A DNA stretch of 64,000 bases from Halobacteriales archaeon QS_1_68_20. Lineage in GTDB: Archaea; Halobacteriota; Halobacteria; Halobacteriales; PXRE01. The position numbers and the translations under genes were made by a program. Below are positions 6,960 to 60,798 of the stretch, piece by piece; positions within the stretch are counted from its first letter, which is position 1; each line of letters opens with the position of its first letter. The notes beneath the pieces are model-generated. The model ran no database searches and was not told the DNA's origin. It saw only the letters and a list, made by a program, of their open reading frames with translations. The stretch lies in assembly GCA_003021085.1 (NCBI GenBank), contig PXRE01000026.1:66559-130558 (forward strand), given 5' to 3'.

Positions 6960-7330
6960 GTTAGAGTCGTGGCGCACGCGAGCAAGGCGCGCGAGGTCTC
7001 CGCGAGTCTTGCGAGCGGAGGCTCGGGAGAGCTTGCTCTCCCGGTGGCCGGGGGAAGCGCGGCGTCTCCGGCGAGCCGTGCGAGCCGGAGGCTCGTCAGC
7101 GCTTACCTCTGACGGTGGCCCAGCGGGTCGGCCACCGCGCCGAGTCCCGCGGTTGGGGAGGGTGGGGTTGACCCCTAGGTGTTGCGTGCCGCTAGCGTTG
7201 CCCGTTCGAACCGTGAACACTAGCGACCACTTGACCTAGGGATATCCACGCCCTCCCCAACCGATTGCGCTCCTCGCTTCGCTCCGGTGCTCATCCCTCG
7301 CGCGCGGCAACCGCAACGTGGCAGGTTGGG
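6960..7330. repeat. intergenic composite repeat, locus A (contains a 115-bp inverted-repeat unit at 7149-7263)
   Basis: GGTTGGGGAGGG at 7150-7161 and its reverse complement CCCTCCCCAACC at 7251-7262 flank a direct repeat TTGACC(C)CTAGG. The right half (7247-7312) is the reverse complement of the module upstream of CGGCTGGGGAGG in locus D. Small hairpins lie at 7025-7042 and 7114-7136. Confidence 0.7.
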
Positions 7331-10718: not shown

Positions 10719-10835
10719 GGTCTCCTGACACGCCCGCCACCTACATCTCCGTTTCGGCGGTCATCCACTACTCCGCGCTCGGCCCACTGGTCCGGAAACC
10801 CGGTCGCTGACCGGTCCGTCCGTCCGCCGCGGCGC

Positions 10836-11146
10836 GCGCTGGTGAGCGTGCCGAGCAACGCGAGGCCGCGAACCAGAGGCGCGCGAGGGACGAGTAACGC
10901 AAGGAGCGCTCGGAGAGCGCGACTGAGTAACGCAGTCGGCTGGGGAGGCGTGTGGCGATGCGCGGTTGGACCGGGTGGGACTGAAAGGGGCCGCGCGCTG
11001 GACGACGGCGGGCGACGTAAGCACCGCAACGGAGTGAGGAGCGCAGCGAGCCCCCCGAGTCGAGCGCGCGGGGGCTTTCTGCGTGTTGCTGTCCAGGATT
11101 CCGTCGACTGTGAGCGCGCGGGGGCTTTCTGGGCGGTGACGGTCAA
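10836..11146 (+). repeat. intergenic composite repeat, locus B (full-length exemplar)
   Basis: Modules are CGGCTGGGGAGGCGTGTGG (10937-10955), GGGTGGGACTGAAAGGGGCCGCGCGCTGGACGACG (10973-11007), and two copies of GAGCGCGCGGGGGCTTTCTG (11062-11081, 11112-11131). All recur at 26.0, 32.7 and 60.5 kb. Confidence 0.85.
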
Positions 11147-11232
11147 GTTATCGTCTACACAGCGCACCCGAAAACACCACGACCCAGCCTGACGACGAAA
11201 ACTGTTTCCCACTCGCACGCCCCGACTCGACC

Positions 11233-11961
11233 ATGCGCGTGACCTTCCTCGGCACCGGCAGCGCCATGCCGACGGGCGAGCGGGTCCAGACGGGCATCCT
11301 GCTGGAAGGCGCCGACCGCCGACTCCTCGTCGACTGCGGGAGCGGCGTCCTGCACCGACTCGCGCAGGTGGCCGACTACGAGGACGTGGGCCACGTCCTG
11401 CTGACCCACCACCACCTCGACCACGTCTCGGACCTCCTCGCGCTGTTGAAGGCCCGGTGGCTCGCGGGCGCGGAGTCGCTGTCGGTCGCCGGCCCGCCCG
11501 GTACCGAGTCAATGATCGCGGACCTACTGTCGGTCCACGACTACCTGCAGGACCGGGTGGACCTCTCGGTGCGGGACGTCGAGACGGGGTCGTTCTCGTT
11601 CGCCGGGTTCGACGTTGAAGCGATGGAGACCCGCCACTCGATGCAGTGTTTCGCCTACCGGTTCGAGGATCGGTTCTCCTTCAGCGGCGACAGCGAGGCG
11701 TTCCCAGAACTCGCGTCGTTCGCGGACGGCTGTACGGCACTGGCCCACGACTGCTCGTTCCCGGACGAGGTGGACGTCTCGAACCACCCGACGCCGACGC
11801 AACTCGGCGAGGCCCTCTCGGGCGTCGACGTCGGGACGGTCTACCTCACGCACCTGTACCCCCACACCGACGGCAACCACGAGGCGATGCTTGACTCCAT
11901 CGCGGACCACTACGACGGGGACGTCGAATTCGCCGAGGACCGCCTGACCGTCTCGGTGTAG
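11233..11961 (+). CDS. MBL-fold metallo-hydrolase (RNase Z/beta-lactamase-fold)
   Basis: MRVTFLGTGSAMP... together with the HHHLDHVSD metal-binding motif. Confidence 0.85.
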   Translation: MRVTFLGTGSAMPTGERVQTGILLEGADRRLLVDCGSGVLHRLAQVADYEDVGHVLLTHHHLDHVSDLLALLKARWLAGAESLSVAGPPGTESMIADLLSVHDYLQDRVDLSVRDVETGSFSFAGFDVEAMETRHSMQCFAYRFEDRFSFSGDSEAFPELASFADGCTALAHDCSFPDEVDVSNHPTPTQLGEALSGVDVGTVYLTHLYPHTDGNHEAMLDSIADHYDGDVEFAEDRLTVSV

Positions 11962-14218: not shown

Positions 14219-14857
14219 CTAGTCGTACCGGTCGACGTGGTTTTCGACGGCGTCCCGCTCGCAGTGGGCGTTGTAGTCGATCCTGGCTTCCTTTCCGTCG
14301 GTGCCGTAGTTGTAACAGCCGTGTTCGACCGCGCCGTCGTCGTTCCAACTCGCCATCGTGGTCGCCTCGTCGTCCGAGAAGATCCCGGCCTGCTCGTGTT
14401 CGCCGGCGTAGGTGTGGATCAGCTCGTGGTAGGAGATGTTGTCGATGGGCGACCAGTTCAGGTCGCCCTCGTAGGCGTAGTCGACGATGCCGCCACGGTC
14501 GCTGGAGTGGATCGCCGTCCCCGTGTCCAGCACCCAGCCCTCGTGGCCGAGCTGGTAGCTGTCGTCCAGGACGACCACGGCGTCGCTGGAACTCCACCAC
14601 CACGGATCCTCGGCGTGGAGCCAGTCCAGCGCCTGGTCCAGCCTGTCCAGTAGCGGCTTGTCGGCGGAGGAGTCGTACTCGACGTCCGGTCGGTCGTCGG
14701 ACCAGCTCATGAACGCGGCGTCGTAGTCGGAGTCGTCCGACCACTGCCAGGCCGACTCGCAGTAGTCCCTGGCCCTGGCCAGCGTGGTCCCGGGGTCGTT
14801 CTCGGAGTACCGGCTGACGAAGTCCGTCGTCATCACGAAGTCGTTGTAGAGGGTCAT
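14219..14857 (-). CDS. HExxH-motif protein (putative zinc metallopeptidase), no signal peptide
   Basis: 212 aa, W/D-rich, with the motif YHELIHTYAGEHE (HExxH followed by a His 6 residues later). It overlaps the upstream gene by 4 nt (ATGA). Confidence 0.6.
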   Translation of the reverse strand: MTLYNDFVMTTDFVSRYSENDPGTTLARARDYCESAWQWSDDSDYDAAFMSWSDDRPDVEYDSSADKPLLDRLDQALDWLHAEDPWWWSSSDAVVVLDDSYQLGHEGWVLDTGTAIHSSDRGGIVDYAYEGDLNWSPIDNISYHELIHTYAGEHEQAGIFSDDEATTMASWNDDGAVEHGCYNYGTDGKEARIDYNAHCERDAVENHVDRYD

Positions 14858-15669
14858 CGCGCATCACCGCCCGAAGCCACGACCAGTTCGTCGCCCTGGT
14901 TCGTCCTCGGAGCCTGGCTCCGGACGTGTTTCGCCAGGACGTGGTCGGACGCCCGGGGAACCACCGCCTGGCCCTCCCCGCCGAAGAACGTCGTCGGGCC
15001 GTGCGAGCGGGCCGTCAGGACCGGTTCGACGTCGACGCTTACCGGGTCGGGTTCGACGGACCGCGTCTTCTGGACCGGCCCGCTCCCGTTTCTGGCGTCA
15101 ACCGTCACCTCCCTGGTTTCGGTCGGCCGAGGTCGCACCGACACCTCGACGGGATCCAGCGGAATCTCGACCCGTTCGTTCCCGGACAGCGTCGCGGACT
15201 CCCCACCGTACTCGACGCGAACGCCACGGCCCGCCCGCGCGACCGTCGGCCGCTCGGGACCGTGGGACTCCGTCAACCGGAGCGCTCGCGTGCTGTGGCC
15301 CTGGAACGTTCCCTCGGCGGTCAGAAAGCGCGTCTCGATGTCCCGCTGGAGGTGCGCTGGCCCGTGCAGGTCGCCCCGGTGGCCGACGAGGACGTCCGGC
15401 GGGTTCCCGGGCCAGGCGTCGTAGTTCACCAGCGTCGCCAGTCCGTCGTGGGTGAGGTACTTCAACCCGCCGCACCCGACGCCGGTGGCGTGATCGCTCG
15501 CCCCCCGGTACTCCATCTTCACCTCCACGAACGGTCTCGTGGCGAGTTGCAACCGCTGGTCGTCCGCCGACGCCGTCCCGACGGTGACCCCGGCCCCACC
15601 GAGCGCCGCGAGCTGCCCGCTGTGTTTGAGCACGTCACGCCTCGATTTCTCCGATGGTGGGTCTGCCAT
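14854..15669 (-). CDS. Tat-signal secreted protein of unknown function
   Basis: The N-terminus SRRDVLKHSGQLAALGGAGVTVGTASA is a twin-arginine signal. 271 aa; first gene of a two-gene operon. Confidence 0.65.
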   Translation of the reverse strand: MADPPSEKSRRDVLKHSGQLAALGGAGVTVGTASADDQRLQLATRPFVEVKMEYRGASDHATGVGCGGLKYLTHDGLATLVNYDAWPGNPPDVLVGHRGDLHGPAHLQRDIETRFLTAEGTFQGHSTRALRLTESHGPERPTVARAGRGVRVEYGGESATLSGNERVEIPLDPVEVSVRPRPTETREVTVDARNGSGPVQKTRSVEPDPVSVDVEPVLTARSHGPTTFFGGEGQAVVPRASDHVLAKHVRSQAPRTNQGDELVVASGGDAR

Positions 15670-21195: not shown

Positions 21196-24100
21196 ATGCG
21201 GGACGACGATCGTGGGTTCAACAGGCGCAAGGTACTGAAATCGACGGTGGCGGCTGCGACGGCCGGTGCAGTGCTACCGGACGCGGCGACTGCCACCGAC
21301 CACGTCGGCTGGCCGGCGGTCGACGACTTCGAGCGGTCGGATCCGCTGGCGGAGTACGGCGCCAACGCCGGCCAGTTCGGCGTCGAGACGTCGACCGTCT
21401 ACGAGGGGAGCCAGGCGCTGGTCAACGCCAGCGGCGACTACTACAGTGCCGTCTCGACGTCCGGACTCGATCGGTATCCGGGTCGGGGTGACGAGGTGAC
21501 CGTCCACTTCGACAACGCCGGCGACGACAACTTCGTGGCGTTCCACTTCTTCGCGCAGTCCGAGACCGACAACCCCGACGGCTACACCGTGGGGATCAGC
21601 GGCGCGGGCGCCTGGCGGATGTGGAACAGCGTGAACGGGTCGGTTTCGGTGATCGCGAGTCAGGACCTCCCGACGAGCGACCAGATCGACGGCTGGTACC
21701 GCGCGGAGGTCCGGACCGACGACACGACGGTGTACGCCGACCTCTACGACGACAGTACGGACGAGTTGCTCGCGTCGATCCAGGCCGACGACACGAACTT
21801 CTCCTCGGGCGGCATCGGCTTCCGCTCGGCCGGCAACGGGGAGGTCTGGGACTACACGTACCGGCCCGACCTGAGCGCTCCACAGTGTTCGATCGCGAGT
21901 CCGTCCGACGGTGCCACGGTCGGCGGAACCACTACCGTCCAGGTCGACGCGTCCGACGCCGAAGACGACGACAGCCTCGACGTCGAGGTCGCCATCGACG
22001 CTGGTACCTACCGGACCGCCTCGTACAACTCCACGTCTGGTTACTACGAGTACGACTGGGACACCACCGCGAGCGACGACGGCGATCACACCATCGACGC
22101 CCGCGCCACCGACAGCCACGGCGCGACGACGAACGCCGACCAGGTCACCGTCACCGTCGACAACGCGGGCGAGACGATCATTGAGGGCTTCGAGCGGACC
22201 GATCCGCTGGCGGACTACGGCGCGGCGACCGACCTCTACAGCGTCACGACCGCGACGGTCTACGAGGGGAGCCAGGCGCTGGTCAACGACGGCGGTGACT
22301 ACGGCAGCGTCGTCTCGACGTCGGGACTGGACACCTACCCCTCCAGGGGCGAGGAGTTCCACTACCGGTTCGACAACGCCGGCGACGACAACTTCGTCGC
22401 GCTTCACTTCATGGCACAGTCGGAGACGGACAACCCCGACGGCTACACCGTCGGGATCAGCGGGTCGGGCGCCTGGCGGATGTGGAACAGCGTGAACGGA
22501 TCGGTCACCCAGATCGCGAGTCAGGACCTCCCGACGAGCGACCAGATCGACGGCTGGTACCGCGCGGAGGTCCGGACCGACGACACGACGGTGTACGCGG
22601 ACCTCTACGACGACAGCACCGACGAGTTGCTCGCGTCGATCCAGGCCGACGACGCGAACTTCTCGTCGGGCGGGATCGGCTTCCGGAGTGCCGGCAACGG
22701 CGAGGTGTGGGACTTCGCGGCCCAGCAAGCCGCGAGCGGGACGGTCGTCGACGACTTCGAGCGGACGGACCCGCTCGCGGAGTACGGTGCCAACGCCGGC
22801 CAGTTCGGCGTCGAGACGTCGACCGTCTACGAGGGGAGCCAGGCGCTGGTCAACGCCAGCGGCGACTACTACAGCGCCGTCTCGACCTCGGGGCTGGACG
22901 TGTATCCGGACCGCGGTGACGAGGTGACCGTCCACTTCGACAACGCCGGCGACGACAACTTCGTGGCGTTCCACTTCTTCGCGCAGTCTGAAACCGACAA
23001 TCCCGATGGCTACACCGTGGGGATCAGCGGGTCGGGCGCCTGGCGGATGTGGAACAGCGTGAACGGGTCGGTCACCCAGATCGCCAGCCAGGACCTGCCC
23101 ACCAGCGACCAGATCGACGGCTGGTACCGCGCCGAAGTCTGGACGGACTCGACGACCGTGTCCGCCGACCTCTACGACGACAGCACCGACGAACTCCTGG
23201 CCTCCATCCAGGCCGACGACGCGAACTTCTCCTCGGGCGGCATCGGCTTCCGCTCGGCCGGCAACGGGGAGGTCTGGGACTACGTCGTCAACAGGGCCTC
23301 CGACACAGACGGCGGCGGGGACTACGGCCCCGGCATCCGCCACTCGCTGTACGACGGCCCGGTCGGCGGCGGCGACGGGATGCCCGCGTCCGCCATCAAC
23401 TCGCCGGGTGACGCCGACATCGTGGTCTCCGACGGGAACCTGCAGTCCGCCATCGACGCGTCTTCGGCCGGCGACGTCATCTACGTGGAGGGCAGCGCGA
23501 CCGCGAGCAGCGTCCACCAGAACGACATCACGATCGCGGGCAACCGTGGCGAGGGGACCGACGGCCAGATCAACGACCCCGACATCGACGCCCGGAACGT
23601 CAGGTTCGACGGGTTGTTCGTCGACGTGCCCGACTCTATCCAGATCACCGAACAGGGCTGGGAGGCGTTCAACTGTGAGTTCTCCGGGCAGGGGTACTTC
23701 GAGATCGACACCGACGTCCTGCCGGAACCGGACGTCGAGTTCAAGCAGTGCGAGATCCACGACATGGAGACCTACAAGACGATCCAGAGTGGCTACGTGT
23801 ACGGCGACGACGTGTACGCCTGTGGCGAGTGGTTCCACATGCCACGGTACGAAGACAGGATCCGGATCGTCTACTGCGAGTGGTACAACAACAGCAAGAT
23901 CTCCGGGACCCAGTACTACTTCGAGATCGTGGACAACTACCTCCACACCAGCGGGACCTCCGGTGGCTTCCTCGAACTGCGCGCGCCCAACGAGTGTCGC
24001 ATCGACGGGTCCGGGAGCGTCAACGACTGTGGCACGCCGTGTGGAACCGGGATCGTCGAACACAACCGCAACGAGATGACCAACGACGGCGAGGGAGTCC

Positions 24101-24309
24101 GACTCGTGCAGGTTCGCGGGACCCCGTGGCGGGACACGCTGTCCGTCCGGAAGAACTACGCGCCGGTCAACACGGACTGGTACGCGGGCTGTGAAGCCGA
24201 CGACTCCTGGAGTTCGAGCTGGCAGGACCAGATCGTCCTCCAGAACGCGGGCGACGCCGGCGAAGGCACCCTCGACGAGATCGTCGTGGAGAACAACGAC
24301 CTCTCCTGA
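21196..24309 (+). CDS. large Tat-secreted protein: 3x LamG/concanavalin-like domains, one Ig-like domain, C-terminal beta-helix-like domain
   Basis: Tat signal RGFNRRKVLKSTVAAATAGA. Three ~180-aa repeats end in ..GGIGFRSAGNGEVWD. There is an Ig-like segment (PQCSIASPSDGATVGGTTTVQVDASD...) and a Cys/Trp-rich C-terminal 350 aa with a repetitive strand pattern. The domain names are inferences. Confidence 0.85.
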   Translation: MRDDDRGFNRRKVLKSTVAAATAGAVLPDAATATDHVGWPAVDDFERSDPLAEYGANAGQFGVETSTVYEGSQALVNASGDYYSAVSTSGLDRYPGRGDEVTVHFDNAGDDNFVAFHFFAQSETDNPDGYTVGISGAGAWRMWNSVNGSVSVIASQDLPTSDQIDGWYRAEVRTDDTTVYADLYDDSTDELLASIQADDTNFSSGGIGFRSAGNGEVWDYTYRPDLSAPQCSIASPSDGATVGGTTTVQVDASDAEDDDSLDVEVAIDAGTYRTASYNSTSGYYEYDWDTTASDDGDHTIDARATDSHGATTNADQVTVTVDNAGETIIEGFERTDPLADYGAATDLYSVTTATVYEGSQALVNDGGDYGSVVSTSGLDTYPSRGEEFHYRFDNAGDDNFVALHFMAQSETDNPDGYTVGISGSGAWRMWNSVNGSVTQIASQDLPTSDQIDGWYRAEVRTDDTTVYADLYDDSTDELLASIQADDANFSSGGIGFRSAGNGEVWDFAAQQAASGTVVDDFERTDPLAEYGANAGQFGVETSTVYEGSQALVNASGDYYSAVSTSGLDVYPDRGDEVTVHFDNAGDDNFVAFHFFAQSETDNPDGYTVGISGSGAWRMWNSVNGSVTQIASQDLPTSDQIDGWYRAEVWTDSTTVSADLYDDSTDELLASIQADDANFSSGGIGFRSAGNGEVWDYVVNRASDTDGGGDYGPGIRHSLYDGPVGGGDGMPASAINSPGDADIVVSDGNLQSAIDASSAGDVIYVEGSATASSVHQNDITIAGNRGEGTDGQINDPDIDARNVRFDGLFVDVPDSIQITEQGWEAFNCEFSGQGYFEIDTDVLPEPDVEFKQCEIHDMETYKTIQSGYVYGDDVYACGEWFHMPRYEDRIRIVYCEWYNNSKISGTQYYFEIVDNYLHTSGTSGGFLELRAPNECRIDGSGSVNDCGTPCGTGIVEHNRNEMTNDGEGVRLVQVRGTPWRDTLSVRKNYAPVNTDWYAGCEADDSWSSSWQDQIVLQNAGDAGEGTLDEIVVENNDLS
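21319..21855 (+). repeat. internal coding repeat R1 (~540 nt)
   Basis: Near-identical at nucleotide level to R3, with long exact runs such as gccggccagttcggcgtcgagacgtcgaccgtctacgaggggagccaggcgctggtcaacgccagcggcgactactacag. Confidence 0.9.
22177..22716 (+). repeat. internal coding repeat R2
   Basis: Same domain as R1 and R3 but more diverged in its first half (IIEGFERTDPLADYGAATDLYSV...). The second half is near-identical to R1/R3. Confidence 0.9.
22744..23283 (+). repeat. internal coding repeat R3
   Basis: VVDDFERTDPLAEYGANAGQFGVETSTVYEGSQALVNASGDYYSAVSTSGLD... is almost identical to R1. Confidence 0.9.
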
Positions 24310-26043: not shown

Positions 26044-26336
26044 CCGGCGCGCTCGTGGGTGTGCCGAGTAACGCAGTCGGCTGGGGAGGTGTGCGGTTGC
26101 GGCTCGCGGGGCGGGACTGAAAGGGGCCGCGCGCTGGACGACGCCCGGCGACGTTCCCGCGAACGAACGTGAGCGGGAGCCAGCGAGAGCGTCGCTCTCG
26201 CGCGGTAAGCACCGCAGCGAAGGGAGGAGCGCAGCGAGCCGCGCGAGTCGACCCCGCGGGGGCTTTCTACGCGTTGCCGTCCAGGCCACCACCGACAGCG
26301 AGCGCGCGGAGGCTTTCCGCGTGTTGCCGTCCGAGC
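26044..26336 (+). repeat. intergenic composite repeat, locus C
   Basis: CGGCTGGGGAGGTGTGCGG (26078-26096), GGGACTGAAAGGGGCCGCGCGCTGGACGACG (26113-26143), and two CGCGG(G/A)GGCTTTC motifs (about 26255 and 26304). It carries a ~50-nt insertion with the palindrome CGAGAGCGTCGCTCTCG (26184-26200). Confidence 0.85.
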
Positions 26337-26465
26337 TACCGCCCACCCAGACAGTGAAGCGACGGTCCGACCAGAGACGACCACCTCACGAAATCCGACC
26401 GATACGATCGGATTTTCGATGGACGAACCTATAAGTTAGAAGCATCTAAACTCCCGACGAGGACG

Positions 26466-28522: not shown

Positions 28523-30694
28523 CTACACCAGGTCCGCGACTGCGGCGACGGCCTCGCGCAGGACGGCGTCGCGCTCGCCGGCGACGAACTCCAGGTGGCC
28601 CCCGTCGCCGCCGACGGCCCGGACGCCGGCGTTCTCGACCACGGAGTCGACGTGGTCGGCGACCGCCCGGAGGTCGAGGTCCTCGTCGGTGCGGACGTGC
28701 AGTTCGTCGGTCGTCACGGCCAGCGTCACCTCGTGGTCGGCCCCGCCGCGGGTCCGGCGGTGGAGTTCGTCGACGAGCAGCGCCGTCGGCGGGAACTCGT
28801 AGCCGTCCGCGAACGCGTCGGCGTCGAGGACGGTGAACCGGACGCCGCCGGCCTCCCGGACCTCGGCGTTGGCCTCGGCCGTGGAGACGGCGTCGTCGAC
28901 CTTCTCGCGGAACTGCTCGCTGACGTGGGAGGCAAGCCCCCGGGCGTCGCCCTCCGGCGTGGCCTCGCCGAACAGCAGGTCGACCACGAGCTGGCGCTTG
29001 TCCTCGTAGGTCTGGTAGTACGCCGACAGCGCGACCGCCTCGCGGAGTTCCTGGGCGGTCGCTTCGTCGTAGCCCGCGTCGGCGGCGAGGTCACGGTACG
29101 CCGCGGGCGGGTCCTCCCAGTAACTGACCGCGGGCAGGTGCGCGAGGTCCTCGCGCACGCCGTCGTTCACGTGGACGGCCACGTTCGACGCCAGGACGGC
29201 CGTGGTGAGGTCCGCCGAGGAGTCGGCGTCCACGACCGTCGAGACCGTCTCCGCCACGTCGTCGTCGGCGTCGGCCGCGTCGATCACGAGGTGTTCGACC
29301 CCGTAGATGGAGAGGAGTTCGTATCCTTCCAGGGACTCGACGGTGCTCCCGGCGTCGACGACGACCACCAGCGGAAGCGGTTCGTCGTGGCGCTCGCGGT
29401 CTTCCAGCATCGAGGAGACGTCGGCGGTGGCGTCGTCCATGTCGTAGACCGTCCCCTCCAGCGGGCGCCGGTCGAAGTAGTGGTACTCGGCGTCGCTTTT
29501 GGCGTGTTCGTCCCGGATCAGCGGGAGGACGGCCCGCTCGATGGCGGCGCCGGCCACGTACCCGTCGGCGGTCGCGGTGTGCCGGACGATGACGGGGCGG
29601 GCCTCCAGCACGGCCCGGCGGATGGCCGTCGCGGCGTCGACGATGACGTCCCTGGCGCCCTCGACGGCGTCGTCATCGGCCAGCAGGTCGACCGGGTCCG
29701 GCCGGGCCTGGTCGTCGAGCGCGGCGTCGAGTCGCTCCCGGACCGCCTCGGCGTCCTCGCCCTCCAGGCGGTCGACGCTCTCGCTCTCGACCTGCAGGTC
29801 CTCCCGTCGACGCTCGACTTCCCCGACGACGCGGACGTGGTCGCCGGTCTCGACTTCGGGGTACGCCCGGACGCCCGCCGCCTCGAACGCCGCGACGTCT
29901 GCAACGGCGGACTCGTCGCGTACCTCGAAGATGGTCGGGCCGCCCGTCTGGCGGACGCTCACGACTTCGCACTCGACGGCCACGCGGTCGCCCACGCGGT
30001 CGGCCAGCGAGTCGACGGTGACCCGCTCGGCGGGCGCCTCGCGCTGGGCGACGGCCGCGCCACCGCCACCGTTGGCGACCGCCGAATCGTCGGCCGAGGC
30101 CCTGGAGTCGCCCTGGCCGGGTTCGGCCGCCGAGTCGGCGTCCGCGGCCCCGCCGGAGCGGTCCGTGTCCTCGGTTTGGTCGGCCTCCGGGGACCTGTCG
30201 GTCTCTCCGGTTCGGTCGGTCTCGTCGGTCTGATCGGTCTCCGGGGACCGGTCGGTCTCGTCGGATCGCTCGGTGGACTCGCTCGCCGATCCGTCGGTCG
30301 TCTCCTCGGTCTCGGGCAGGTGCTCGGTGTCGGTGTCGGGGTCGTCGATCAGTTTGCCACGGAAGTCACGTTCGCGCTCGCGGATCGACCACCCGAGGTC
30401 GACGTCGCCGTTGTCTCGCACCCGGAGGACCTGGACGTAGACGGTGTCGCCCGGTTCCCAGTCGAGGCTCTCCAGTCTGGGTTCGATCTCGCTCTGGTGG
30501 AGCAGGCCGGTGACGGAGTCTCCGACGTCGACGAACACGCCGAAGTCGGCGTAGCCGTCGACGGACCCCTCGTAGAATCGCCCGGGGGTCAACTGCTCAG
30601 GACGTGTCCCCCTGAACTCGAAGACGACGTCCTCCTCGTGGGTGTCACAGATACGGCCGTCGACGGCCGTGCCACAGATGATACAGCGTCCCAT
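28523..30694 (-). CDS. Zn-ribbon / S1 / OB-fold / DHH-DHHA1 (RecJ-like) phosphoesterase-family protein
   Basis: N-terminal CIICGTAVDGRIC, S1-like GRFYEGSVDGYADFGVFVDVGDSVTGLLHQSEI, an acidic linker, an OB-like VAVECEVVSVRQTGGPTIFEVRDES, then a DHH-superfamily-like C-terminal half. The catalytic DHH motif is not clearly seen. Confidence 0.7.
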   Translation of the reverse strand: MGRCIICGTAVDGRICDTHEEDVVFEFRGTRPEQLTPGRFYEGSVDGYADFGVFVDVGDSVTGLLHQSEIEPRLESLDWEPGDTVYVQVLRVRDNGDVDLGWSIRERERDFRGKLIDDPDTDTEHLPETEETTDGSASESTERSDETDRSPETDQTDETDRTGETDRSPEADQTEDTDRSGGAADADSAAEPGQGDSRASADDSAVANGGGGAAVAQREAPAERVTVDSLADRVGDRVAVECEVVSVRQTGGPTIFEVRDESAVADVAAFEAAGVRAYPEVETGDHVRVVGEVERRREDLQVESESVDRLEGEDAEAVRERLDAALDDQARPDPVDLLADDDAVEGARDVIVDAATAIRRAVLEARPVIVRHTATADGYVAGAAIERAVLPLIRDEHAKSDAEYHYFDRRPLEGTVYDMDDATADVSSMLEDRERHDEPLPLVVVVDAGSTVESLEGYELLSIYGVEHLVIDAADADDDVAETVSTVVDADSSADLTTAVLASNVAVHVNDGVREDLAHLPAVSYWEDPPAAYRDLAADAGYDEATAQELREAVALSAYYQTYEDKRQLVVDLLFGEATPEGDARGLASHVSEQFREKVDDAVSTAEANAEVREAGGVRFTVLDADAFADGYEFPPTALLVDELHRRTRGGADHEVTLAVTTDELHVRTDEDLDLRAVADHVDSVVENAGVRAVGGDGGHLEFVAGERDAVLREAVAAVADLV
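30160..30270 (-). repeat. 54-nt tandem duplication inside the acidic linker of the RecJ-like gene
   Basis: ccggggacc[t/g]gtcggtctc occurs at 30187-30205 and 30241-30259. It encodes ETDRSPETDQTDETDRTGETDRSPEADQTEDTDRS. Confidence 0.7.
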
Positions 30695-32392: not shown

Positions 32393-32632
32393 ATGCATGC
32401 TAGCTTCCCCCACATGGGGTTGCGCGGTAGACACCCCGGCATCGCCGCGTTCACTGTCGTCCGGGTGGCTGGGCTGGTCGCCTGGCTCACCCTCTGGGAG
32501 GGAGCGGTGTCCGTCGACGTCGCCGTCGCGGGGGTCGGCGTCCTGTGCTTCGAACACAACCTGGCGCTCGCGTTCACCTGCCGGCCGACCGAAGAATCCG
32601 AGGACGCTCCGGATGCGGCCGTCGCGCAGTGA
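32393..32632 (+). CDS. small two-helix membrane protein (79 aa), hypothetical
   Basis: A TATA box at leaderless distance, two hydrophobic segments (IAAFTVVRVAGLVAWLTLW, VAVAGVGVLCF) and an acidic tail. Confidence 0.4.
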   Translation: MHASFPHMGLRGRHPGIAAFTVVRVAGLVAWLTLWEGAVSVDVAVAGVGVLCFEHNLALAFTCRPTEESEDAPDAAVAQ

Positions 32633-32682
32633 CCGACGCAGAGTCGATTACCCGGGGGGGCGACCGCGGGCCAACACCGTGC

Positions 32683-32956
32683 GAGGGATGAGCACCGGAC
32701 GGAGCCAGGAGAGCCTGCGGCTCTCCTGGCGGATGAGGAGCGCAATCGGCTGGGGAGGCGTGTGGTTGCGGCTCGCGGGGTGGGACTGAAAGGGGCCGCG
32801 GGCTCGACGACGCCCGGCGACGTAAGCACCGGAAGGAGCGGAGCGACTGGGGGGCGCAGCGAGCCGCGCAAGTCGAGCGCGCGGGGGCTTTCTACGTGTT
32901 GTCGGTGAACGCACCGAATACAGTGAGCGCGCGGGCTTACCGTGCGCTACCGACCG
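32683..32956 (+). repeat. intergenic composite repeat, locus D
   Basis: GAGGAGCGCAATCGGCTGGGGAGGCGTGTGG (to 32765), GGGACTGAAAGGGGCCGCGGGCTCGACGACG (32782-32812), GAGCGCGCGGGGGCTTTCT (32875-32893), and a degenerate second copy (32925-32938). Confidence 0.85.
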
Positions 32957-32965
32957 AGAACCCGA

Positions 32966-60396: not shown

Positions 60397-60485
60397 GTTT
60401 CCCCCGGGGCCGGCCGCCCGCAAAAACCTTCGGCTCGGGGGGCAACGGCCGCAGTCGTTCGCTCTGATTCGACGATCCACCGCCG

Positions 60486-60686
60486 GCGCGCGCTGGTGAG
60501 CGTGTCGCCGCAGGCGACCGCGAACCAACGGCGCGCGAGTCGGCTGGGGAGGCTGGTGGTTTGCCCGAGCTGTGGGTGGGACTGAAAGGGGCCACGCGAG
60601 TCGAGCGCGCGGGGGCTTTCTGGGCGGTGCTGACCAGGCAACCGCCGACAGAGAGCGCGCGGGGGCTTTCTGCGTGTTTCGGACCG
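60486..60686 (+). repeat. intergenic composite repeat, locus E (shortest version)
   Basis: CGGCTGGGGAGGCTGGTGG (60541-60559), GGGTGGGACTGAAAGGGGCCACGCG (60574-60598) fused directly to GAGCGCGCGGGGGCTTTCTG (60603-60622), and a second copy at 60653-60672. Confidence 0.85.
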
Positions 60687-60798
60687 AAACGGATAGTGGG
60701 AAGCGAGAAGCGATTCCGAACGCCGACTCCACTGCCGATCCACCGAACAGCATCCAGTCGGACCCAGGTTTACAATCGGACCACACTAACACCCCACC

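Follow-up and report, generated by a model that had tools for sequence, protein, structure and literature searches.

A Halobacteria-wide family of non-coding hairpin repeats with a covarying fold, carried in relatives by IS6-type miniature transposons

Structured interspersed repeats

The structured interspersed repeats of bacteria, REP, ERIC, BOX and Correia elements among them, have been well studied, but those of archaea hardly at all. REPs are 20-40 nt long and tied to a RAYT transposase. BOX elements are modular, with boxA, boxB and boxC present in variable module numbers, and Correia elements affect neighbouring transcripts. The closest archaeal description to the family considered here, on a comparison by description only, is that of the small mobile repeats HqIRS42, HqIRS43 and HqIRS55 of Haloquadratum walsbyi, families of about 110 bp with inverted termini, no target duplication and a mode of movement left unexplained (Dyall-Smith et al. 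2011, PMC3119063).

The repeats at issue were met in a stretch of 64,000 nucleotides (the window) from Halobacteriales archaeon QS_1_68_20. Four elements of 217-334 bp, none with a transposase gene, are present in these 64 kb, and each contains all or part of a hairpin core that recurs across Halobacteria.

Copies in the window

The window has exactly four occurrences of the 16-mer GGGACTGAAAGGGGCC, always on the + strand (10977, 26113, 32782 and 60578), and at each locus it is preceded by a GGCTGGGGAGG box (10938, 26079, 32748 and 60542) and accompanied by paired GCGCGGGGGCTTTCT motifs at a spacing of 48-50 nt. With up to three mismatches allowed, the chance expectation for the 16-mer is 0.77 matches and none of 100 shuffles reached five, so the recurrence of motifs at 10.9, 26.1, 32.7 and 60.5 kb, all on the + strand, to which a first-pass annotation had drawn attention, is far beyond chance. 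Pairwise BLAST of the four loci gives identities of 77-85% over 66-270 nt (E 1e-11 to 1e-42), and repeat-finding in the window grouped them as families D7, D8 and D11. R1, a covariance model made from relatives of the window copies, matches the same four, at 112.7, 110.9, 53.4 and 42.1 bits, and nothing else convincing was found with it across the window, with or without filters. A fifth locus had been counted in the family, and here the claim holds in part: the four on the + strand belong together, while the fifth (7245-7306) is on the - strand and has upstream boxes only, GCGCGAGGGATGAGCACC...AATCGGTTGGGGAGGG / GAGGAGCGCAATCGGTTGGGGAGGG, with no core. Locus A as a whole (7148-7306) has two facing GGTTGGGGAGGG boxes, at 7151-7161 (+) and 7252-7262 (-), the latter preceded by GCGCGAGGGATGAGCACC...GAGGAGCGCAATCGG, which surround a CTAG-rich palindrome of about 80 nt; R1 gives there only a 14.3-bit partial match, at 7264-7294.

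Copy B extends on the + strand from ~10831 to ~11164, slightly wider than the 10836-11146 at first assigned to it, a placement that is otherwise sound. At its 5′ end is an accessory hairpin, GGCGCGCGCTGGT...ACCAGAGGCGCGCG (10831-10886, + strand, by direct reading), formerly termed module 0, and this left end is also present in copy E (60485) and in the orthologous copy of a related species (L118:90). Small hairpin modules, GAGGGACGAGTAACGCA...GAGTAACGCAG (10887-10934, + strand), follow and resemble the apical P3 and P4 helices of the core, with a weak partial R1 match of 10890-10936 to model positions 49-89 (12.3 bits, E = 1.3). The conserved box AGTCGGCTGGGGAGGCGTGTGG (10935-10956, + strand), the former module 1, is 100% conserved in the ortholog, and 14 of 131 copies, drawn from several genera, have it upstream of the core at a distance of about 20 nt. 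The core hairpin itself (10969-11082, + strand) consists of GGGUGGGACUGAAAG, a GGG loop, helices P1, P2, P3 and P4 and, on the returning side, the GGG loop again and CUUUC; it matches R1 at 110.9 bits (E = 2.6e-19), and its minimum-free-energy fold, at -55.8 kcal/mol, is the consensus structure. Beyond the core a 3′ tandem unit of about 50 nt (11083-11164, + strand) repeats the 3′ arm, with GAGCGCGCGGGGGCTTTCTG at 11112-11131; the ortholog has three such units. Earlier described as a linear string, the modules are better read as a fold in which three of them make up one covarying hairpin, with two arms and an apex. Module 2 forms the 5′ arm, the variable GAGGAGCGCAGCGAGCC segment the distal 3′ side, and the first copy of the last module, GAGCGCGCGGGGGCTTTCTG, the 3′ arm; a second GAGCGCGCGGGGGCTTTCTG, 50 nt downstream, repeats that arm in tandem.

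Copy C (26047-26357, + strand) has its box at 26079-26089, its core at 26105-26270 and a second 3′ unit at ~26304-26318. An insertion of about 50 nt at its apex consists of two small hairpins, of a kind common in other genomes. R1 scores copy C at 53.4 bits, and with filters off the match breaks into 26105-26159 and 26161-26270. Copy D (32680-32960, + strand) comprises a GCGAGGGATGAGCACC module, the box at 32748-32758, a core at 32774-32895 that matches R1 at 112.7 bits (E = 1.2e-19) and a degenerate second 3′ unit at ~32927-32941. Copy E (60485-60701, + strand) has module 0, the box at 60542-60552, a mini core at 60570-60623 that comprises P0 and about 5 bp of P1 only (42.1 bits with R1, 77 model positions being deleted), and a second 3′ unit at ~60657-60671. 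Its junction, GGGGCCACGCG|AGTCGAG, sits in the direct repeat GCC(G/A)CGCG, which is present twice in full copies, and relative to copy B everything between the two direct repeats is lost. Copy E is a deletion derivative that keeps only the hairpin base. Such loss between direct repeats is what repeat-mediated deletion leaves behind, and it accounts for the ‘clean’ differences in modules among the loci, which do differ, as had been noticed, by insertions and deletions of whole segments.

The window copies are composites of 5′ hairpin modules, the GGCTGGGGAGG box, the core and two tandem 3′ units, and composites of this type are found in other genera too (14 of 131 copies). B, C and D have in common the P1 sequence GCG(C/G)GCT(G/C)GAC, and none of the window's core copies occurs as a head-to-head pair. 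The elements are non-coding, as first proposed: the ORFs that cross them are in different frames, give shared pseudo-peptides and are spurious artefacts of a GC-rich repeat. Three of the four core copies lie between divergent gene starts. The arrangement reported earlier is borne out, on crude gene calls, for B, C and E (divergent starts) and for A (convergent ends), while that of D depends on whether an 80-codon ORF at 32393-32632 is a gene; the position of the copies in these gaps also argues, as had been said, against their being simply terminators.

The fold and its covariation

The core is a long imperfect hairpin of about 115-125 nt with the invariant boxes GGGYGGGACUGAAAGGGGC and GGGGCUUUC. 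The sequence right after GGGGCC, though it differs among copies, is the reverse complement of that right before GGGGGCTTTC. At least six uninterrupted pairs come straight after GGGGCC in 67 of 123 motif instances, with a mode of 11, and in 64 of these 67 the helix ends exactly 5 nt before CTT.

An RNAalifold consensus was derived from 39 copies of standard length in a MAFFT alignment not fitted to structure. In its basal helix, P0, GAAAG of the 5′ box GGGYGGGACUGAAAG pairs with CUUUC of the 3′ box, and both this pairing and the GGG-opposite-GGG internal loop inside it are invariant in the 39. P1, of 10-13 bp and free sequence, is followed by a GAA/GA loop; P2 is a 7-bp helix whose third position is a conserved mismatch, C-C or A-C, and which leads to a short GC/GC step; P3 is short, GCACC/GGAGC around A-A, and P4 is the variable apex. 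Compensatory changes are present in 22 of the 32 pairs. Standard pairs fill 94.1% of cells in the same alignment; shuffles give 75.3% and slid partners 33-48%. The covariation score of 0.438, against 0.120 in shuffles, was reached by none of 500 shuffles. The sequences had been picked for an intact P1, which biases P1, but P2, P3 and P4 were not selection criteria and also covary, with two-sided change in all six P2 pairs. R1 finds at least 133 copies in 100 sources, mostly haloarchaeal, and in the R1-fitted alignment of 133 copies 95.0% of cells are paired, against 72.5% in shuffles and ~40% with slid partners, with two-sided changes in 27 of 32 pairs. The alignment and covariance model that had been suggested as a check thus recovered a covarying hairpin and matched the four window copies.

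RNA genes normally show covariation of this quality. Folding of single sequences gives the structure again, but the energies are only 0.9-2.5 sd better than those of shuffles (z -0.9 to -2.5); fold stability was accordingly set aside as an argument, and the case for structure rests on covariation because the fold energies barely beat shuffles. Four invariant G-tracts are all on one strand and are shortened to GG in low-GC relatives. A K-turn and a bulge-helix-bulge were considered, and on inspection the GAA/GA loop and the 3x3 G loop fit neither consensus.

Which strand folds bears on what the hairpin is. Copies were oriented by their asymmetric invariant boxes and not by the pairs counted. 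Among the modelled pairs, which like most of the pair counts come from an alignment fitted to the model, G-U and U-G number 130 against 34 for A-C and C-A, or 93 against 34 when one G-U-rich pair is left out. Since G-U exceeds A-C, the G-rich strand appears to be the folding strand, single-stranded as RNA or as single-stranded DNA. Strand-biased C-to-T mutation could contribute to an excess of this kind.

Distribution and genomic setting

A scan for the 16-mer in one genome per species gave at least 115 stretches, nearly all in Halobacteria and in many genera, and the few bacterial matches share nothing with the family beyond the 16-mer. By BLAST and motif scan together the family is in at least 25 genera. 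The motifs are accordingly spread across Halobacteria and not confined to the window's five sites, as established by a pattern search, a check proposed in the first-pass annotation and applied here to other genomes. BLAST of copy B against plasmids matched 46 haloarchaeal records, with carriers that include Natrinema, Natribaculum, Haladaptatus, Halobaculum, Haloprofundus, Salinigranum, Haloferax and Halobacterium sp. DL1; the copy on pHV4 of Haloferax volcanii, at 14,801-14,912 on the minus strand, scores 96.9 bits with R1, and a weaker copy lies about 2.2 kb from it. A virus-borne element was also considered and rejected, the exact 15-mer being in 20 IMG/VR viral contigs, none of which matches R1.

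Every type of intergenic gap contains copies: with a crude GC3-based gene caller, 31 divergent, 42 tandem and 17 convergent gaps were counted, against a background of 136, 310 and 137. Head-to-head pairs make up 22 of 106 clusters in other genomes; their 5′ boxes are separated by 18-26 nt, and the two members differ in P1. No protein family recurs beside the copies (189 flanking ORFs). In tandem gaps 18 copies are co-oriented with the flanking genes and 11 anti-oriented, which is not significant, and in divergent and convergent gaps the orientation statistic is forced by geometry.

Cargo of IS6-type miniature transposons

Inverted repeats, GGYAGTGTTCAGATAAGC, enclose the core copies of some relatives (L101 and L022), and direct repeats lie outside these in turn. 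A metagenome scan for the GGYAGTGTTCAGATAAGC end revealed two populations, one of ~697 bp and the other short (130-343 bp). The ~697-bp element is homogeneous, is present at no fewer than 33 loci and encodes DDE_Tnp_IS240 (E = 1.6e-10), a marker of the IS6 family; an 8-bp target duplication, CATAGTGA, flanks it in L153, and duplications were seen in L149 and L200 also. R1 finds no match in this parent insertion sequence. It does find one or two cores in 10 of the 12 elements of 189-330 bp that were searched, at 41-121 bits, and between nearly all GGYAGTGTTCAGATAAGC pairs spaced 183-337 bp apart there are one or two R1 cores. Perfect 8-bp duplications flank at least seven short elements (L175, L216, L185, L211, L258, L250 and L207), and the terminal inverted repeats are present in further relatives, L171 and L198 among them. 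Versions of 130-138 bp keep only the base of the core, as does window copy E.

With a core between GGYAGTGTTCAGATAAGC repeats and 8-bp duplications outside, these relatives are MITEs, and in many haloarchaea the core travels as cargo of an IS6-type MITE. Evidence of mobility in this sense comes from the relatives, the window copies having neither GGYAGTGTTCAGATAAGC-type ends nor visible duplications: no GTGTTCAGATAAG-like terminal repeat was found near any window copy, and no target duplication or direct repeat was seen at the boundaries of B, E or L118. The thought that the repeat might be a fragment of an IS element is therefore partly right, in that the core lies inside MITEs with IS6 ends in other genomes while the window copies are without such ends.

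Retention at orthologous loci

A related MAG with the same gene order, in which the MBL protein is 90% identical, has the element upstream of the same gene as copy B, so this copy is retained at the same locus in a related species. The two cores are 93.9% identical over 114 aligned nt, and the flank of the locus, mostly coding, is 82.6% identical over 3.4 kb; the promoter-proximal spacer between copy B and its ortholog cannot be aligned. P2 shows a single compensatory change between the orthologs, G:C to A:U. In ten more pairs of copies that share homologous flanks and come from different species or genera, core identity equals or exceeds flank identity, and across eleven pairwise comparisons there are 81 two-sided pair-preserving changes against 21 disruptions. 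Conserved cores at homologous loci fit selection on the fold at fixed loci.

Both the conservation at single loci and the compensatory changes seen in orthologs could also arise through ectopic gene conversion among copies. Halomicrococcus, the next relative, is without the element, but the neighbouring gene there is different too. A comparison with empty sites was tried for B and C; Halomicrococcus and a metagenome contig are free of the element, but as the neighbours differ these are not clean empty sites. The contig of the related MAG begins 90 nt before the element, and such repeats, which cause spurious ORFs, probably cause assembly breaks as well. A covariance model would improve annotation.

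Transcription and known RNA families

The analysis found no sign of transcription or processing. No promoter or TATA-like sequence was found upstream of the window copies. Where copies are not head-to-head, A+T content peaks at 0.61 about 38 nt before GGGACTG and is ~0.5 at -14 to -12; a promoter of the element's own was considered on this basis and rejected, the modest rise ~38 nt before the 5′ box coinciding with the terminal repeat. The rows listed in the H. volcanii TSS table, which end before pHV4, contain no start in the 70 nt that follow the motifs, and those listed in the 3′-end tables place nothing near 14.8 kb of pHV4; with the TSS rows ending where they do, this is weak evidence on the pHV4 copy. 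The sequence after CUUUC is U-rich, with the consensus CUUUC-NNN-NUGUU. Of terminator features, only a TTT after the hairpin (CTTTCT) was found, and three of the four window copies stand between divergent gene starts instead of at gene 3′ ends. For the window copies between divergent starts, the promoter of the downstream gene lies after the element; by position these copies are therefore neither leaders of those genes nor terminators and, because the neighbouring mRNAs do not cover them, a role as RNA needs a transcription start that has not been seen.

Rfam 15 gave no matches at gathering score in the whole window and, at a permissive threshold over 10780-11200, one chance match of 14.5 bits (E = 3.1); no tRNA or tmRNA was found in the window. 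A guide or bridge RNA of TnpB or IS110 was considered and rejected, as no such gene recurs beside the copies; an IS110 gene does occur near the one on pHV4, but it is about 385 nt away and on the opposite strand. An origin recognition box was also set aside, the likeness being weak, with one haloarchaeal variant containing GGTGAAAGGGG.

What the repeats may be

The best account, to which we give a probability of roughly 0.6, is that these are Halobacteria-wide non-coding structured repeats that are mobile, have a fold selected on one strand and in some copies are retained by the host. The family would spread as a non-autonomous mobile element, with one or two cores between GGYAGTGTTCAGATAAGC repeats, and composites such as those of the window would vary by deletion and duplication between short direct repeats. 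The fold would be kept by selection on the single-stranded G-rich strand, most likely in a transcript, and hairpins seeded between genes by transposition may in some cases later have been retained at fixed loci. We infer that the folding strand acts as RNA and that selection is at the level of the host; replacement of whole copies by ectopic gene conversion, or insertion more than once at one site, would give the same picture as host-level selection.

More specific versions are held with less assurance. Tentatively, the core could be an undescribed structured RNA across Halobacteria that was spread by MITEs and then domesticated at fixed loci for a function in the host, with strictly invariant G-tracts that could form a G-quadruplex; the putative quadruplex and helix junction would involve GGG-Y-GGG and the GGG/GGG loop clamped by helices, in the molar-potassium cytoplasm of haloarchaea. 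As for role, our best guess, held at low probability, is that the hairpin works in cis as a barrier or stabiliser on transcripts running across the gap between genes.

The rival that survives best is that the repeat is a purely selfish palindromic MITE with no RNA or host role, its complementarity being kept by template switching that corrects quasi-palindromes, by gene conversion from intact copies, or because only foldable masters transpose. The terminal repeats and 8-bp duplications of the relatives are what such an element would have, context and orientation are independent of the neighbouring genes, P1 is shared within the genome by B, C and D, and two-sided changes at one locus are easily made by replacement of a whole copy. 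Yet blind correction of a palindrome should erase the GGG/GGG loop, the C-C of P2 and the A-A of P3, which are conserved across genera, and these conserved mismatches together with the loop argue against a blind DNA process that merely perfects palindromes. A DNA-level process also predicts equal numbers of G-T and A-C, against the 130 and 34 observed, and at fixed loci conservation is higher in the core than in the flanking coding DNA. IS6-type transposition is not known to need internal structure, which likewise tells against a purely selfish element and leaves that reading rather unlikely.

Independent small RNA genes, each with its own promoter and yielding a structured RNA of ~130 nt, active in trans or bound by a protein at its invariant G-rich boxes, would account for covariation of RNA-gene quality, for the invariant boxes and for the G-U excess. 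The A+T rise is spaced as would be expected of an archaeal TATA box if transcription began immediately before the 5′ box, and the U-rich stretch after CUUUC is in keeping with such a gene. The A+T peak, however, is nothing other than the IS6-type terminal repeat, and the window copies do not have it, the 18-26 nt between head-to-head 5′ ends are too short for two promoters and, among the H. volcanii rows listed, no TSS lies within 70 nt downstream of the motifs, all of which makes small RNA genes of this kind improbable.

A DNA-level element, cruciform-prone and rich in G-tracts, that binds protein, absorbs supercoils or serves as a recombination site could be read into the excess of divergent over convergent gaps (31 against 17, with a background of 136 against 137, on crude gene calls), the 5′ boxes as short-spaced inverted pairs in 22 of 106 clusters, the four invariant G-tracts on one strand and the weak likeness of the box to the origin-recognition-box variant containing GGTGAAAGGGG, but a cruciform folds both strands and so no asymmetry between G-T and A-C is expected, there is no link to orc/cdc6 or any other gene and low-GC relatives cut the G-tracts to GG, so that it is very improbable.

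For the preferred reading, of mobile structured repeats with a selected fold, the presence of a copy in the genetically tractable Haloferax volcanii makes transcription, folding and any effect on neighbouring genes directly testable.

Comparison with known systems

Full-text literature, including searches with motif and terminal-repeat strings, yielded no description of the family, though it may already be annotated informally, for instance in ISfinder or HaloLex. An ‘NmIRS’ repeat of Natronomonas moolapensis was pursued and dropped; it is unmentioned in the genome paper, and IRS stands for ISH-related sequence. The present motifs have no match in the supplements of the paper on the Haloquadratum ~110-bp repeats (PMC3119063), and the mobile-element tables of Haloquadratum contain no IS240-type MITE. 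Unlike the HqIRS repeats the present family is GC-rich and in many genera.

IS6-family (IS240/IS26-type) MITEs are alike in that the relatives share GGYAGTGTTCAGATAAGC ends and 8-bp duplications, are 183-343 bp long and have no ORF. The window copies, however, are without terminal repeats or target duplications, and the cargo is a conserved, covarying hairpin found across genera instead of a deletion remnant of the parent insertion sequence. PATEs and IS200/IS605-type ends (TnpB omega RNA, sotRNA) are also abundant in haloarchaea, palindromic and free of terminal repeats and target duplications, and some are structured RNAs; in contrast no tnpA or tnpB is beside any copy of the present family, the hairpin spans the whole unit and is not near-terminal, and Rfam, with its IS605-orfB and HEARO models, gives no match.

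With REP/BIME-REPIN sequences, which commonly form inverted doublets, the family has in common that it is intergenic, GC-rich and a mosaic of palindromic modules and that the fold is kept more than the sequence; its own head-to-head pairs account for 22 of 106 clusters in other genomes and for none of the core copies in the window. The differences are a unit of ~120 nt (115-125) with four helices and invariant loops, no associated gene among the 189 flanking ORFs and an archaeal host. ERIC/IRU, BOX and Correia elements are also MITE-like, 100-200 nt long and form long RNA hairpins when co-transcribed, but they have no sequence relation to the present family, and the window copies are mostly between divergent promoters and not in 3′ untranslated regions. 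On the preferred account the family would be an archaeal analogue of the REP, ERIC, BOX and Correia elements. Both MITEs and structured interspersed repeats are established kinds; what is new is the class-wide spread, the multi-helix covarying fold with its invariant G-rich loops and the apparent retention at orthologous loci, which together provide an example of a transposon family with a conserved folded cargo, single copies of which seem to be kept at one locus across species.

Composite loci and insertions at the hairpin tip

Extra small hairpins lie within the apex of the core, the hairpin that is the central unit of the repeat family, in copy C (window 26153-26203; TCCCGC..GCGGGA and GCGAGAGCG..GCTCTCGC are examples) and also in L021, L038, L049, L081, L095 and L103 from other genomes or metagenomes, with TTCGAAAGACG....CGTCTTTCGAA as an example from outside copy C. 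These apex hairpins have the look of a smaller, second repeat whose target is the tip of the hairpin. Locus A (window 6973-7306) differs in its make-up from the other repeat loci and is a separate kind of composite, in which two opposed arrays of small GC-rich hairpin modules are separated by a CTAG-rich palindrome of about 80 nt, CCCTAGG...GTTCGAAC...CCTAGGG. Each array terminates in the box GGTTGGGGAGGG, and this box may serve as an end of another element.

Repeats of other kinds are present inside ORFs of the window. At 21308-23035 a unit of about 300 nt is present in three direct copies with a mutual identity of 77-92%, which match three repeated protein domains of a 1037-codon ORF (21196-24309). 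Repeats with an 18-nt period and CGGTCTC.. units, repeat family D20, are within a long ORF at 30145-30252.

Neighboring genes and mobile elements

Downstream of copy B is a gene for an MBL-fold hydrolase (window 11233-11961) that is widely conserved in haloarchaea, where its relatives are annotated as ribonuclease BN/Z-like; the lactamase_B families that it matches include the Pfam family Anti-Pycsar_Apyc1. The contig of a related MAG, L118, that carries the orthologous copy starts some 90 nt ahead of the repeat (L118:1-90), an indication that short-read assemblies break at these repeats.

Hypersaline metagenomes are rich in an IS6-family element that encodes a DDE_Tnp_IS240 domain and measures about 697 bp. 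It is present at L153:5589-6284 and at no fewer than 33 other metagenome loci, is bounded by terminal repeats GGYAGTGTTCAGATAAGC, and has target duplications of 8 bp. The copy examined has an ORF of just 151 codons, and may be degraded. On Haloferax volcanii pHV4 (L117:1116-2114), many insertion sequences surround the repeat copy, and the transposase gene of the IS110-like ISHvo9 is about 385 nt from this copy on the opposite strand, a proximity that we judge to be coincidental.
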